From Nitrospirota bacterium (GTDB lineage Bacteria; Nitrospirota; UBA9217), in assembly GCA_963751455.1 (NCBI GenBank), contig CAVVUN010000015.1, positions 928,001-992,000 on the forward strand: a stretch of 64,000 bases of DNA. Reading direction: 5' to 3'. Below the pieces are notes generated by a model. It did not search any database. It was not told where the DNA came from and saw only the letters and a program-made list of their open reading frames with translations. The position numbers and the translations under genes were made by a program. Below, one piece after another: positions 196 through 49,383 of the stretch (the first letter of the stretch is position 1; every line of letters starts with the position of its first letter).

Positions 196-598
196 TTGTA
201 ACCACGGATGAACACGGTTAAAAGCTGAGAAACCCCATGAGTGGAGAAAAGGAACTTCTTCATGGGATCTTACTTAAAAAAGATAAAGGTAATCCTCCAA
301 CAAGAGTTCAAGGTTCTGTACCGGGAAAAAGAAGTAGGTCTCTATTTACGCAGACCTCGTTGTTGAACAGAAGGTAATCGTGGAAGTAAAGTCAGTAGAT
401 AGAATTGACGATGTTCACCGTGCTCAGATTATGAATTACCTGAGGATATCGGGAGTGCGGATAGGACTGCTGATAAACTTTTCGCGTCCGAAGTTAGAAT
501 ATGAGAGAATAGTTGTTTAACCGTGTGTTTTGATTTAAACCCGGGATATTTATCTGTGTGTGCGGCGAAGCCGCACCCGTGTTTATCTGTGGTTACAA
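196..598. repeat. 22-bp inverted repeats enclosing the GxxExxY remnant
   Basis: 196-217 TTGTAACCACGGATGAACACGG versus reverse complement of 577-598 TTGTAACCACAGATAAACACGG (2 mismatches); internal hairpin GTGCGGC-GAA-GCCGCAC at 560-576. Confidence 0.9.
237..520 (+). pseudogene. Degraded GxxExxY-family (PD-(D/E)XK-like) protein gene
   Basis: Manual translation across frameshifts: MSGEKELLHG/DLT.../IKVILQQEFKVLYREKEVGLY/YADLVVEQKVIVEVKSVDRIDDVHRAQIMNYLRISGVRIGLLINFSRPKLEYERIVV-stop. The C-terminal half is typical of the family; the segment carrying the GxxExxY motif is missing. Confidence 0.85.
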
Positions 599-12350: not shown

Positions 12351-12524
12351 CCTGAAAACGGCAGTTGGACGCAGATGAACGCAGATAACCACAGATCAAA
12401 CAAAAGATTTTTAGAGAAAAAAATTCACCCGCAGGGTGACTGCTTTTACGATACAAGAACGTTTTTTTATCCGATCTTATCTGCGTTTATCCGATTTTTC
12501 TGCGTCCCAAATGCTTTTTTTAGG
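12351..12524. mobile_element. MITE-like element, diverged relative of the 164-bp MITE
   Basis: Ends CCTGAAAACGGCAGTTGGAC...GTCCCAAATGCTTTTTTTAGG; internal ACGCAGAT 9-mers; flanks ATAAA and ATCGC do not form a target duplication. Confidence 0.75.
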
Positions 12525-12571
12525 ATCGCAGTCGGGACCCGTGTTCATCTGTGGTTGCTATAAAGAAAAGT

Positions 12572-14828: not shown

Positions 14829-14881
14829 TGTCTTCTCTCCTTATTATGAACTCCGGAATAACGTATTTTTTGATAGTTAAT

Positions 14882-15045
14882 CCTGAAAAAAGCAGTTGGA
14901 CACGGATAAAATCTGATCAACACGGATTTATAGGAAGTTACGAACAGTAATGGATTCACCCAAAAGGCGAGATGGCTTTTTGCTCTATCACATTGTTTTG
15001 ATCCGCTGTTTCCGTGTTCATCCGTGTTCAAATGCCGTTTTTAGG
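14882..15045. mobile_element. 164-bp MITE, copy 1, with 5-bp target duplication TTAAT
   Basis: Imperfect TIR CCTGAAAAAAGCAGTTGGACACGGAT / ATCCGTGTTCAAATGCCGTTTTTAGG; TTAAT at 14877-14881 and 15046-15050; identical to 17401-17564. Confidence 0.92.
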
Positions 15046-15322
15046 TTAATTGATTTTGTCTTTACAAAAACGTTATGCCGGCATCAAGATGCTGGAAGTT
15101 TACTATATCTGAAGAAGGGAAAGCAAGAGGGTTCTAGCTGGAATTAACATAAAGAAACAACCTTATTTTAAACATGATCCCGTGAGAGCGATAGCTTGAA
15201 ATAAGCTGTCAGTTCAAAATGAGCCATCCATAACGAGCAGGTTCGTAAGTTCCCGCATCATACTGCATTAATAAGTCTGTCCAACACATTGAATAATCAG
15301 TCTTTCTCAAACTTTACGCATA

Positions 15323-17308: not shown

Positions 17309-17400
17309 AAAAAATCCCTCAAAGAAGAACCATTCTTTTCCTAAAAGCCGATATAATTTTAGTATAACTCACAGTTTTTTAGAAGCGTTTCCGGTATAAA

Positions 17401-17564
17401 CCTGAAAAAAGCAGTTGGACACGGATAAAATCTGATCAACACGGATTTATAGGAAGTTACGAACAGTAATGGATTCACCCAAAAGGCGAGATGGCTTTTT
17501 GCTCTATCACATTGTTTTGATCCGCTGTTTCCGTGTTCATCCGTGTTCAAATGCCGTTTTTAGG
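17401..17564. mobile_element. 164-bp MITE, copy 2, with 5-bp target duplication ATAAA
   Basis: Identical to 14882-15045; ATAAA at 17396-17400 and 17565-17569. Confidence 0.92.
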
Positions 17565-17802
17565 ATAAAGGATTATAACTCCCGGAACCGATGGTGTCAG
17601 TGCGGCCTTTATGACTGCAGAGATAACGAAGAATTAAATAAAAACCGGCCCGGTGACTGTTTTAGACTTGGAAACTGAAAAGCGACAGGTCACGTCACAG
17701 AAAGGCAAGCTGGCGCCTGTGGCAGAATGATTTCTCCGTGGCGACGTGGAAGATCTGAAGGGACAGCGAAACGAACATGACGACTGAACGGCGCTCGATT
17801 GT

Positions 17803-20763: not shown

Positions 20764-20948
20764 TTATCCACAGATTACGCAGATATCGCAGATAAAACCA
20801 CACTGTATTTAGTTTTTTGTAATGATCGTTGACTGCTATGAAGAAAAAGTCAGATCTTTTTAATATGAAATTCTCTCAGCGCTCTTTGCATACTCTGCGA
20901 TTAATTATTCTTTATATAATCTGCGTCATCTGCGTAATCTGCGGATAA
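20764..20948. repeat. 9-mer-repeat inverted-repeat hairpin
   Basis: TTATCCACAGATTACGCAGAT ... ATCTGCGTAATCTGCGGATAA (1 mismatch in 21). Confidence 0.88.
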
Positions 20949-32030: not shown

Positions 32031-32198
32031 CGTAACTATTCAGCTTCTTTTCAGAACGGCATTAAGACAAATCTGAGAAAAAGCCTTCTATCCGCAGATT
32101 TCGCAGATGGACGCAGATTTTAAAACCAGAATTCAGGTTTTGTTTTTATCTGCGAAATCTGCGTGATCTGCGGATAAAAAAATGACCTGAGTAGTTAC
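32031..32198. mobile_element. MITE-like element with GTAACTATTCAG ends and a 9-mer hairpin core
   Basis: (C)GTAACTATTCAG ... CTGAGTAGTTAC; AAAT on both flanks (32027-32030, 32199-32202); internal CCGCAGAT/ATCTGCGG repeats. Confidence 0.75.
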
Positions 32199-32335: not shown

Positions 32336-34249
32336 ATGATCCTAGACGGTAAAATACCTTCCGGTCCGCTTCCCGAAAAATGGGACAGGCAATGCCGTGA
32401 CATGAAGTTGGTGAACCCAGCGAACAAGCGGAAGTACACAATCATTGTCGTGGGCACCGGCCTTGCCGGTTCATCGGCAGCCGCTACCTTGGGCGAGCTC
32501 GGCTATAATGTGGAGGCCTTCTGCTTCCAGGACAGCCCGCGCCGCGCTCACAGCATCGCGGCCCAGGGAGGCATCAACGCCGCAAAGAACTACCCCAATG
32601 ACGGAGACAGCATCTTCAGACTGTTTCATGACACGATCAAGGGAGGGGATTTCCGGGCGCGCGAGGCGAATGTGTACCGGTTGGCATCGATCAGCAACAA
32701 TATCATCGATCAATGCGCGGCCCAGGGCGTTCCTTTTGCACGCGATTACGCGGGATATTTAGACAACCGTTCTTTCGGCGGGGCGCAGGTCTCCCGCACT
32801 TTTTATGCCATGGGACAGACGGGCCAGCAGCTGCTGCTCGGCGCTTACTCGGCGCTTTCACGCCAGGTGAAGGCGGGGACAGTCAAACTTCATCCCCGGA
32901 CCGAAATGCTCGATCTGGTGGTCGTGGATGGACACGCCAAAGGGATAATCATCCGCGATCTGGTGACCGGACAGATCCGCTCACATGCCGCAGACGCGGT
33001 CTGCCTCTGCAGCGGCGGTTATGCGAACGTGTTTCACCTTTCCACAAATGCCATGGGAAACAATGTTACTGCGACGTACCGGGCGTATAAAAAAGGAGCG
33101 CTTTTCGCGAATCCGTGCTATACGCAGATCCATCCGACATGTATCCCGGTCACCGGCGATCACCAGGCCAAGCTCACACTCATGTCCGAGTCGCTAAGGA
33201 ACGACGGCCGCGTCTGGGTCCCGAAGCTGAAGGGGGACAGCCGCGCTCCCCAAGATATTCCCGAGCAGGAAAGGGACTACTATCTGGAACGGAAGTACCC
33301 CGCCTTCGGCAACCTTGCACCCCGCGATATAGCGTCCCGAGCAGCGAAAGAGGTATGCGACGAAGGCCGCGGCGTGGGTGCAAGCGGCCGGGGTGTATAC
33401 CTCGATTTTGCCGGCGCCATCGAGCGCCTTGGAGCGGATACAATACAGGAGCGGTACGGCAACCTCTTTGACATGTACGAAAAGATAACGGACGAAAACG
33501 CTTATACGCGGCCGATGCGTATCTACCCTGCGCCGCATTACACCATGGGCGGGCTCTGGGTTGACTACAATCTCGAGAGTACGGTGCCGGGTCTCTTCGT
33601 TCTGGGCGAGGCGAATTTTTCGGACCACGGCGCAAACAGGCTCGGCGCAAGCGCGCTGATGCAGGGACTGGCAGACGGGTATTTCATAATTCCCTACACC
33701 ATAGCGAATTATCTTGGGCAAACAAAGCCGGGCGCAGTAAGCGCCTGCAACTCGGCATTCGCACAATCAGCGGCAGAGAGCGAGGCTTCGATCAAGAGGC
33801 TTCTGTCGATTAACGGAAAGAAGACGGTTAGCGAGTTCCACAGCGAGCTCGGGCATATCATGTGGGAGAACGTGGGCATGGCGCGCAGTAAAGAGAGCCT
33901 CACAAAGGCCCTCAATCTAATCCCCGTACTTCGGGCGGAATTCTGGGAGAACGTGCGGGTGTCCGGCGCTGAAGCAGGGTTGAATCAGCAGCTCGAAAAA
34001 GCGGGCCGCGTGGCGGACTTCCTTGAGTTCTCTGAACTCCTCGTTCGGGATGCTTTGCACCGGAACGAATCCTGCGGAGGCCATTTCCGGGTCGAATACC
34101 AGACACCGGACGGCGAGGCCAAACGCGACGACGAGAACTTCTGCTATGTGGCGGGATGGGAATATAAGGGCGTTGACCAGGAGCCGGAGCTGCACAAGGA
34201 ACCGCTGGTTTTTGAGAATGTGCACCTGGCGGTGAGAAGCTATAAATAG
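32336..34249 (+). CDS. sdhA: Succinate dehydrogenase/fumarate reductase flavoprotein subunit
   Basis: [15 protein letters not shown] flavinylation site, QIHPT, HYTMGG, HGANRLG. Confidence 0.96.
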
Positions 34250-34694
34250 AAATATTTTTTTGGACGCAGATAAACGCGGAAAAATCGGATTAAATTTAAA
34301 AATCTGCGTGGATCTGCGAAAATCTGCGTCCAGGAGATTTGAAGAGGTTGTTTATGAATCTGACTCTCTATGTCTGGCGGCAGACGGAGGCCATTTCCGG
34401 GTCGAGTACCAGACACCGGACGGCGAGGCCATGCGTGACGATGAGAACTTCTGCTATGTGGCGGGATGGGAATATAAGGGTGTTGACCAGGAGCCGGAAC
34501 TGCACAAGGAACCGCTGGTTTTTGAGAATGTGCACCTGGCGGTGAGAAGCTATAAATAGAAATATTTTTTTGGACGCAGATAAACGCGGAAAAATCGGAT
34601 TAAATTTAAAAATCTGCGTGGATCTGCGAAAATCTGCGTCCAGGAGATTTGAAGAGGTTGTTTATGAATCTGACCTTATACGTCTGGCGGCAGA
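34075..34694 (+). repeat. 310-bp tandem duplication of the sdhA 3' end, spacer and sdhB 5' end
   Basis: 34075-34384 versus 34385-34694; about 11 substitutions, nearly all synonymous. Confidence 0.95.
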
Positions 34695-35401
34695 GCGGTC
34701 CGCGTGACAAAGGACGACTCGTTCAATACCAGGCAGCCGGCATCTCGCGCGACATGACGTTTCTCGAGATGCTCGATGTCGTGAACGAAGGATTGATCGA
34801 GAGCGGCGAAGAGCCGATAGCGTTCGACCACGACTGCCGCGAGGGCATCTGCGGCATGTGCGCGCAGGTGGTCAACGGCGTTCCGCAGGGGCCGCAGGAG
34901 AAGACCACGATCTGCCAACTCCACATGAGACGCTTCAAGGACGGGGACACGCTGTATATCGAACCTCTGCGCGCAAGGGCATTCCCGGTAATTAAAGATC
35001 TGATCGTCGATCGTGGGGCGCTTGACCGCATGATACAGTCCGGCGGTTACATTTCGGTTCATACGGGCGGCGTTCCGGATGCAAATGCGATTCTGATCCC
35101 GAAGACTGACGCGGATGAAGCCATGGATGCGGCGGAATGCATCGGGTGCGGAGCATGCGTGGCAGCTTGCCCGAACGGTTCGGCCATGCTCTTTACAGCG
35201 GCGAAAGTGACGCACCTTGCAAAGCTGCCCCAGGGAAGGGCCGAGGCTGCGCGCCGTGTCTGCGTGATGACCGAAGCGATGTTGAAGGAAGGCTTCGGCA
35301 ACTGCAGCAACCATTACGAGTGCCAGGCAGTGTGTCCGAAAGGTATCAAAGCGAAATTCGTGGCGAAACTGAACCGGGAATATATCAAGGCGCAGTTTTA
35401 A
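34664..35401 (+). CDS. sdhB: Succinate dehydrogenase/fumarate reductase iron-sulfur subunit
   Basis: [33 protein letters not shown]. Confidence 0.96.
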
Positions 35402-38592: not shown

Positions 38593-38866
38593 TAACCACA
38601 GAATGTCCAGGCAGCCGTAAACGCGGTCAGATAAACACGGATGGACACAGATAAAGTCTAAATAAAAAAGTTTTTGCCACAGAGTTCACCGAGCACACAG
38701 AGAGGCTCCTTTCTCACACAAAGCCACTAAGCAACAGAGAAAAGAATTTTAAAAATATATTTTCTTCGTGGCTCCACGGCTTCGTGTGAAATCGACTTTT
38801 TCTTCTATGTCAAATTTTAATTTAAGCTTCTTCTCTCTCTGTGCCCTCTGTGTTCTCTGTGGCAAA
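38593..38866. repeat. Nested inverted-repeat hairpins of three 8/9-mer subtypes
   Basis: Outer AACCACAG...ACACGGATGGACACAGAT; middle TTTGCCACAGAG / CTCTGTGGCAAA; inner TTCTCACACAAAGCC / GGCTTCGTGTGAAA. Confidence 0.8.
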
Positions 38867-38942
38867 TATATTTTCATGTTATTCCGTGGTAAGGAATCTT
38901 TCATGCGGCCTTCATGGCCGCATTTATTTTAAGAAACAGGAA

Positions 38943-49164: not shown

Positions 49165-49383
49165 TCTCGCAAAGGCGCAAAGTTCGCTAAGAAGGCACCA
49201 GCATTTGATATTGTTTCATTCAAAACCAGAAGCTTTTTATTTTCTTCGTGTCTTCGCCTGTGGCCGGCGCCTTGAGTGCGTAGCGCGAATATAGGCCATG
49301 GCTTCGTGTAAGACCGCTTTTTGACTTTACATTCATTAAGACTTAAAGTTTTTCTTTGCGACCTTTGCGCCTTTGCGCGAGAC
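49165..49383. repeat. 8/9-mer-repeat hairpin with an internal sub-element
   Basis: TCTCGCAAAGGCGCAAAG ... CTTTGCGCCTTTGCGCGAGA; same family at 28388-28470 and 32240-32311. Confidence 0.8.

Follow-up and report, generated by a model that had tools for sequence, protein, structure and literature searches.

A decayed nuclease gene between inverted arms

The locus at positions 196-598 of the window, the 64,000-nucleotide stretch of Nitrospirota DNA that was analyzed, fills a spacer in a secretion operon that measures 426 nt from the gspL stop to the gspM start. L and G numbers below denote loci and genomes that were compared, G000 being the genome of the window. The following features were recognized, all on the + strand:

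1-184, +: 3' end of gspL, the upstream host gene, with stop codon TAA at 182-184; the whole ORF in L007 matches GspL_C
196-222, +: 5' arm, consisting of a T-rich lead, a CACGGAT core (203), a second core CACGG (213) and a tail
237-520, +: GxxExxY (TIGR04256/PF13366) pseudogene, with ATG at 237, its C-terminal half open at 341-517 and stop codon TAA at 518-520
516-526, +: what is left of the inner part of the original 3' arm; it overlaps the stop codon of the nuclease gene, an arrangement shared with intact copies at gspL-gspM
527-576, +: 50-nt insert in the 3' arm, lying between CCGTGT direct repeats (521-526 and 577-582) and including a small hairpin (560-576)
577-598, +: outer 3' arm, with its end 12 nt ahead of the gspM start and just before the GAGG ribosome-binding site of gspM
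611-1111, +: gspM, the downstream host gene, with GTG start at 611

A sequence-only reading of this DNA had placed a decayed GxxExxY gene between gspL and gspM inside 22-nt inverted repeats, and we confirmed both parts. Residues from 341-517 match TIGR04256 GxxExxY (E 6e-21) and PF13366 (E 6e-19) and pass the curated cut-off of TIGR04256/PF13366 (74.9 bits vs 35; the intact gene at L021 reaches 140 bits), while the flanking genes match GspL_C (gspL), T2SSM (gspM) and TIGR04411 GspN (gspN). The inverted repeat joins 196-217 to 577-598 through 20 Watson-Crick pairs and two G.T pairs over 22 nt, with a second pairing of 212-222 with 516-526. Its score of 17 was reached by none of 300 dinucleotide shuffles of the spacer (mean 8.6, maximum 16), and in the RNA ensemble the arms have a predicted pair probability of about 1. 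The repeat unit had to be redrawn: instead of the proposed 9-mer it is the 7-nt core CACRGAT, which occurs twice per arm with a spacing of 10 nt (CAC at 203 and 213). No Rfam family was matched in a search of the locus. A scan for intrinsic terminators flagged the mini-hairpin at 560-576; for the main stem a terminator was ruled out, the sequence after it being A-rich on both strands.

The copy in the window is dead. Compared with L021, a deletion of ~97 nt at 263/264 removed codons 10-41, including the GxGxxExxY motif and the conserved acidic residue E33, and the frame is further broken by a -1 lesion near 271 and a +1 lesion near 349. A 151-nt DNA-read contig (depth 2.6) lacks the extra base near 345-349, and the +1 lesion may be an assembly error or strain-specific; the gene would be dead even if it were an assembly error, because the deletion alone suffices. 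The suggestion that this copy is an autonomous form must therefore be dropped, since the deletion took the namesake motif together with a conserved acidic residue. The pseudogene has a GC content of 42%, compared to 53% for the window.

The 3' arm is compound, with the start of the original arm (516-526) followed by the 50-nt insert and then by the outer arm. Compared by eye, positions 534-598 agree at about 60 of 65 bases with the 3' arm of a hairpin that lacks a gene and lies 5 kb upstream, between gspF and gspG (G000:C15 ~923490-923555), suggesting that arms at separate junctions exchange sequence by recombination via their cores. Different 17-nt mini-palindromes occupy the same position between CACRGAT arm cores at G000 C1:17773, C3:375571 and C15:844381 and at 560-576 of the window. 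Along G000:C15 918148-929946, most long spacers of the secretion operon carry a tandem-arm repeat, each of another class. A secretin-like gene of the same gsp operon, upstream of the window (G000:C15 918307-920314), is split into two overlapping frames, which suggests assembly indel errors or a broken gene.

The arm-nuclease-arm unit and its protein

That inverted repeat, nuclease and inverted repeat together form a cassette in operon spacers, as the sequence-only reading proposed, proved to hold generally. We sampled 30 loci and 80 further regions out of ~150 matches listed for genomes of the family. An inverted repeat with a score of at least 14 encloses 97 of 111 distinct GxxExxY genes with full flanks, vs 16 of 761 control genes of G000, and mismatched arm pairs reach this score in 86 of 1319 cases. 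Where both flanks could be called by homology, the flanking genes are co-directional in 85 of 96 cassettes; the cassette gene is co-oriented with the upstream gene in 101 of 107 and more AT-rich than its flanks in 109 of 111. All 8 PF13366 loci in G000 have tandem-core arms (by eye), with cores that differ per locus, and 6 of the 8 reach a score of 14. The proteins of these copies are about 40% identical, each at a different junction. Neither a transposase, nor a target-site duplication, nor near-identical dispersed copies, the hallmarks of insertion sequences and MITEs, were found for the GxxExxY cassette.

In a quick tree of 101 intact proteins the clades correspond to the junctions gspL-gspM, larC-nadE, hemH-hemG, nuoF-nuoG and patatin-ubiA, where the labels nuoF-nuoG and patatin-ubiA are our presumed assignments from sequence. 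Arm class follows nuclease clade in the same tree. The two arms of a cassette resemble each other more closely than they resemble other arms of their class (1524 vs 1369 +/- 20; 0 of 2000 permutations, in which kin are not independent), and linker positions co-vary weakly between arms (0.62-0.79 vs 0.43-0.68). One kinase-regulator junction carries two different GxxExxY clades with different arm classes (L067 and L074). At L006 (G000:C15 1718983-1719392) the GxxExxY gene is split by a ~90-nt insertion.

The intact protein encoded at gspL-gspM has 125 aa. A model built from 96 sequences reached a pLDDT of 94.8 (48 for a single-sequence model), and its best Foldseek match was Cas4 SSO0001 (E 1e-4), followed by alkaline and lambda exonucleases, MGME1 and AddAB. 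In a wide structure search Cas4 (Z 8.2, rmsd 3.6, 99 aligned) tied with a domain of the type IIG restriction enzyme BpuSI (Z 8.1, rmsd 2.2, 89 aligned); splicing endonucleases scored lower against the model (Z 5.3-5.8). Among the intact proteins E33, D72 and E82 are conserved in 96 of 96 and K84, Q96 and Y100 in 95 of 96, and we take these E...D...ExK...QxxxY residues to fit a RecB-type active site. By modeled fold and conserved residues the GxxExxY protein is predicted to be a PD-(D/E)XK protein of the RecB/Cas4-like kind, with putative nuclease activity. A sequence search found no relative in the PDB, an Atlas search with the nuclease matched only the same family, and PADLOC gave a weak Cas4a2 match for one of four proteins (E 4e-4).

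The gspL-gspM nuclease clade extends to other sites and phyla. Of sixteen further loci examined, 11 lie outside gspL-gspM and hold full-length clade members (60-70%); each of the 11 bears the same arm type, with 10 scoring at least 14. Together with two partial copies they mark 8 other junctions, which include a tRNA-Leu/metalloenzyme gene junction, a DHODB-Fer4_20 pair, two M16 peptidases, a site before radC, and gcvT-gcvH. The source records are titled Nitrospinota, Sumerlaeota, Planctomycetales, Elusimicrobia, WOR-3 or Omnitrophota, or are unclassified. The clade is also present in records titled Nitrospirota/Nitrospirae, and for L208 the gspL-gspM junction itself was checked. Two distant Verrucomicrobia matches had no enclosing arms at this score threshold. 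Few plasmids or phages carry a member of the GxxExxY family (8 of 72,556 plasmid records, 2 of 50,697 phage records), and we found no viral contig with the gspL-gspM nuclease clade.

Junction states, gene-less hairpins and the nature of the arms

We identified gspM in 54 of 64 genomes of the family, which gave 55 gspL-gspM loci. Eleven hold an intact cassette (in 6 genera), 4 a broken one (the window included) and 8 only a 3'-arm remnant (remnant classes were assigned by eye). Of the other 32, in which the cassette gene is absent, 11 carry tandem-arm repeats of another kind and 21 a spacer that is short or unrelated. As for homing endonucleases, the cassette occupies a fixed site between conserved genes with empty alleles in relatives. 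Because these empty orthologous sites exist and GxxExxY flanks are enriched in arms, the outcome named beforehand as fatal to the sequence-only reading, genes with no arm enrichment and no empty sites, did not occur. No clean gene-less allele with both arms of the focal class is present among the 55 loci, and a target duplication is not definable at them. The 8 partial remnants (L025, L159, L160, L166, L170, L173-L175) all keep the 3' arm adjoining the gspM ribosome-binding site; none of the 8 is a 5'-arm-only remnant, and CGTC-type REPs replace the 5' part in three. In two genomes of the sister family the gspL stop and the gspM start overlap.

Among the ~150 matches listed, identities to L021 are bimodal, with 13 places at 70-100% plus the window copy at 60%, and the next at 49% or less; all 13 of these closest relatives listed in the family lie directly before gspM. 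The 10 intact gspL-gspM copies in the family tree form one clade (quick tree, SH-aLRT 100). Over the 55 pairs of the 11 intact genes, dN was 0.11-0.24 and dS was saturated or above 1.7 in 53, indicating purifying selection and no recent hop. A recent insertion at gspL-gspM was ruled out, the junction being common to 7 genera with saturated dS.

An initial reading of vertical inheritance, drawn from dN/dS and single-clade tests, was overturned by models of gain and loss and by comparison with the neighboring genes. A history of losses alone requires 20 or more of them, and adding regain improves the fit by 4.7-5.3 lnL (LRT 9.4 and 10.7; p 0.001 and 0.0005). Hidden rates did not rescue the loss-only model (lnL -30.9 vs -26.5). 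A model of random presence in 20% of tips fits almost as well (lnL -27.5), as expected under fast turnover or lasting within-species polymorphism. At 10 gspL-gspM loci (L043, which is without gspL, was left out) nuclease protein distance is decoupled from that of gspL+gspN (Mantel 0.08, p 0.39), in contrast to gspM (0.69, p 0.001) and to five 125-aa pieces of gspL/N (0.48-0.77). The AU test rejected the host (gspL+gspN) topology for the nuclease (0.005 for protein, 0.004 for DNA); for gspM it was retained with protein (0.13) and weakly rejected with DNA (0.02). Decoupling was repeated at larC-nadE (nuclease 0.00 vs control 0.51, n=12) and patatin-ubiA (0.07 vs 0.84, n=8). The junctions nuoF-nuoG and hemH-hemG are uninformative, since the positive control failed at both. 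These tests have n=8-12 per junction, with one genome per species and a host tree built from the flanking genes.

Based on these results we tentatively read positions 196-598 as a remnant, now dead, of a selfish cassette of a homing-like kind, which encodes a Cas4/RecB-like nuclease with putative cleavage activity, an assignment to which we give slightly less than even confidence. It is suggested by the junction-specific clades, the patchy presence, the decay series, the purifying selection, the decoupled protein history and the recurrence of the same clade and arms elsewhere. Horizontal re-acquisition, as in homing endonucleases, is indicated by incongruence and regain, with small n. We count several results against the homing-like reading. 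At the DNA level, the distances of the nuclease and of the host are still correlated (rho 0.37), the nuclease and host trees agree on the two closest host pairs, and single-clade AU tests were mostly non-significant (0.09, 0.19 and 0.23; one group gave 0.019, with a long branch in play). There was also no co-conversion gradient beside the junction at the 10 loci, where 1 of 10 windows was significant, 300-420 nt away, and the weak rejection of the host topology for gspM DNA weighs in the same direction, as does the lack of an evident DNA-binding domain in a 125-aa protein that would have to read many different long targets.

Under the homing-like reading, a cassette of ~0.45 kb, made of a tandem-core arm, the gene for the 125-aa nuclease with its predicted Cas4/RecB-like fold and an inverted arm, would sit at fixed operon junctions and, in the manner of free-standing homing endonucleases, likely persist by coming back into a given junction again and again from other lineages. 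The gene would be transcribed from the promoter of the host operon. Its product would cut DNA in or close to a gene-less allele, most plausibly after recognizing in it an arm remnant or the cores of its own arms, and repair that used an allele with the cassette would copy the cassette into the junction. Rare ectopic events would found new junction clades, and copies that had become fixed would break down, leaving a defective gene, part of an arm or just an empty spacer, as appears to have happened in the window. Gene-less hairpins may arise by deletion, by arm-to-arm recombination (seen in the focal 3' arm) and by hitch-hiking on MITEs. A broader form of this idea, which we consider doubtful, would make GxxExxY cassettes a large class of selfish elements of the chromosome that still lacks a name, each with a minimal Cas4/RecB-like nuclease that recognizes its own tandem-core arms, cuts gene-less or remnant arm alleles and homes into the same junction across genera, while arms spread by recombination and MITEs serve as landing pads for new junctions. 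If so, homing would be directed by the element's own repeats rather than by a host target.

Purifying selection, patchiness and incongruence would follow equally if the nuclease were an accessory host gene under intermittent selection (e.g. in defense or ssDNA processing) that is swapped by ordinary homologous recombination via its conserved flanks, with the arms acting as regulatory protein-binding sites. The Cas4/RecB-like fold, the weak PADLOC match and the weak co-variation of arm linkers, as in binding-site arrays, are compatible with such a gene. We nevertheless regard it as unlikely, since it does not account for genomes with as many as 8 divergent copies, every one of them at a separate housekeeping junction and within a separate arm class, or for the persistence of the arms across phyla, and the flanking DNA has no exchange tract.

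Related gene-less hairpins elsewhere in the window, noted in the sequence-only reading, are indeed present, and at least one (32086-32179) sits inside a MITE. They comprise the following, none assigned to a strand:

12368-12554: compound gene-less hairpin with CRCRGAT cores, its outer right arm of the focal arm type
14878-15049: gene-less hairpin of the CACGGAT type, 172 bp, with a second copy at 17397-17568 (98.8%), 2.5 kb apart
20764-20948: gene-less CRCAGAT hairpin
32032-32198: ~165-bp MITE with a CGCAGAT tandem-arm hairpin as passenger (32086-32179), of a family with terminal inverted repeats and 8-bp target duplication
34261-34642: two gene-less hairpins of the CGCAGAT type, copied within a 310-bp tandem duplication
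38635-38877: nested gene-less hairpins of the CACRGAT and CACAGAG types
49165-49380: gene-less hairpin of the CGCAAAG type, the arm class of larC-nadE cassettes

The 310-bp tandem duplication (34075-34698, 96%), which comprises a gene end, a hairpin and the start of the next gene, may be real or an assembly artefact. The ~165-bp MITE looks active, with 8-bp AT-rich target duplications, and occurs at about 50 other places in G000 besides the window. Of its strict terminal-repeat pairs in G000, 32 of 41 have perfect 8-bp target duplications, which suggests a DDE-type transposase; a pattern search of G000 found no full-length partner transposase. Arm classes of 7-mers are common in G000. Where relatives have a filled junction, the orthologous junction in G000 often has a hairpin without a gene, in some cases of the same class and in others of a different one.

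These hairpins bear on the proposal that the cassette is analogous to REP/RAYT with a different enzyme, the nuclease copying in trans the gene-less hairpins of its own arm class and the gene moving rarely. This receives some support from arm class tracking protein clade, from a gene that is chromosomal and under purifying selection, and from the 27 focal-type arms in G000. The predicted correlation between hairpin number and gene presence was also found, with 1-9 CRCRGAT dimers (median 2) in 7 family genomes without a PF13366 match vs 7-170 (median 42) in 23 with a match (p 1e-4, kin not independent). The same 7 genomes, however, have 0-1 copies of the unrelated CGTC-type REP, and the correlation may therefore reflect repeat-free spacers. 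MITE carriage confounds it as well, since 46 of the 210 periodic hairpin loci in G000 (by the filter used) bear ends of the ~165-bp MITE, and about 10 CRCGAAG hairpins ride a ~225-bp unit, mostly with TTAA at both sides and without clear terminal inverted repeats (e.g. G000 C1 326912-327017). In genomes that have the gene, the count of gene copies is no predictor of the hairpin count (rho 0.34, p 0.11), and outside the family three genomes without a PF13366 match hold CRCRGAT dimers (G117 with 116, G029 with 13 and G038 with 21). G127, a congener of G117, has 164 dimers and one gene, and G141 has neither. The nuclease, moreover, has no HUH/tyrosine chemistry, and its gene has itself reached many junctions and phyla. 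As an account of the locus we find the analogy improbable.

Mismatches within the arms bear on whether these act as DNA or as RNA. A strand-symmetric element should have equal numbers of G.U and A.C mismatches unless one strand folds under selection. On the sense strand we counted 45 G.U vs 62 A.C mismatches in 100 cassettes, and 102 vs 118 in 121 co-directional gene-less hairpins, with seeds in arm detection that favor Watson-Crick matches. The 100 cassettes also contain 172 transversion-type mismatches, many at linker positions. The lack of a G.U excess together with these linker mismatches argues against a selected RNA helix and for DNA site arrays, although a stem with symmetric internal loops would be possible with the same mismatch data. 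Consistent with the homing-like reading, the arms are likely DNA recognition or recombination sites rather than a selected RNA helix. By rough ORF calls, the median distance is 11 nt from the upstream stop to the first arm and 20 nt from the second arm to the next start. In 55 of 84 intact copies the 5' arm and the start region overlap. Sequestration of the start codon by the 5' arm was considered and is weak, predicted accessibility being 0.36 at the start vs 0.40 in the coding interior. It is very unlikely that the cassette is an mRNA intervening sequence, in which the arms pair in the operon transcript, loop out the gene and place the stop codon of the upstream gene close to the ribosome-binding site of the downstream one, with RNase III or the encoded enzyme cutting the stem as in 23S rRNA intervening sequences that carry an ORF. 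Such a model would fit the co-orientation of cassette and upstream gene, the arms lying tight to the genes and overlapping the start region, the predicted pairing of the window arms and an overlapping ancestral gspL-gspM junction, but the mismatch spectrum, the hardly different start accessibility, the best structural matches to DNA exonucleases over splicing endonucleases and the absence of an Rfam match speak against it.

Significance and comparison with known systems

The cassette offers a testable job for a widespread nuclease family listed as of unknown function, and a possible origin for the tandem-arm hairpins that fill the spacers of many environmental bacteria and were once read as regulator sites. 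If the homing-like reading is true, chromosomal homing that cycles at housekeeping operon junctions across genera would extend a biology based on phages and would imply a very small site-directed nuclease. The window copy is itself a dead gene; intact, broken, remnant and empty alleles are available as a matched set at gspL-gspM.

We did not find a description of the cassette or of its junction behavior in the literature searched (subscription papers lay outside its scope, and the supplements of the Geobacteraceae papers PMC2700814, PMC2996986 and PMC3543383 may list these repeats). In the accessible text of PMC3424549 the GxxExxY/PDDEXK_3 family (TIGR04256, PF13366) is of unknown function with multiple transfers, and arms or junction behavior are not mentioned there. 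The 'global regulator binding sites' of Geobacter metallireducens, as far as described in the available parts of PMC2700814, resemble the arms in several ways: they lie in spacers, an array of 3-5 tandem 7-8-mers on one strand is paired with such an array on the other at a distance that varies, and an association with IS elements is noted. They differ in that no nuclease is linked to them there and that they are interpreted as regulator sites.

ORF-bearing 23S rRNA intervening sequences (S23p/PF05635; PMC4990558, seen in part) likewise have an ORF in the loop of a long terminal stem, are horizontally acquired and are prone to decay. The GxxExxY cassette lies outside rRNA, encodes another protein family than S23p and has no G.U signature. 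PF05635 genes (four-helix-bundle, 23S IVP) do occur in G000, at C15:113825, C9:376666, C9:369506 and C2:320592, the last being split around a hairpin MITE (320796-320889).

REPIN/RAYT systems, from the portions of PMC3337134 and 10.1101/2021.07.10.451892 available to us, share a short chromosomal gene with flanking inverted repeats, one repeat type per gene type and many gene-less doublets. One repeat type per gene type was found for GxxExxY cassettes too, and cis-linkage alone can give the same. In contrast to RAYTs, the cassette has a PF13366 protein with a Cas4-like fold in place of an HUH-Y1 tyrosine transposase, its arms are tandem arrays rather than palindromic REPs and one pair tightly encloses the gene. 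Many of its gene-less copies lie in MITEs, and its gene, present at many junctions and in several phyla, is not the non-jumping, vertically inherited gene of RAYT systems.

Homing by free-standing nucleases has been described mainly from phages, as in T4 seg/mob and intronless homing (PMC2988022, available in part). In contrast to those systems, the GxxExxY cassette is chromosomal, has inverted tandem-core arms with no co-conversion detected, and encodes a 125-aa protein with a predicted Cas4/RecB-like fold and no separate DNA-binding domain; we do not classify the cassette among them. The likeness lies in a nuclease gene in the spacer between conserved genes, patchy in distribution, with intact and decayed copies and a history decoupled from its neighbors. 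By analogy, and with cleavage putative, the GxxExxY cassette appears to work most like the free-standing homing endonucleases covered in the part of PMC2988022 that we could consult.
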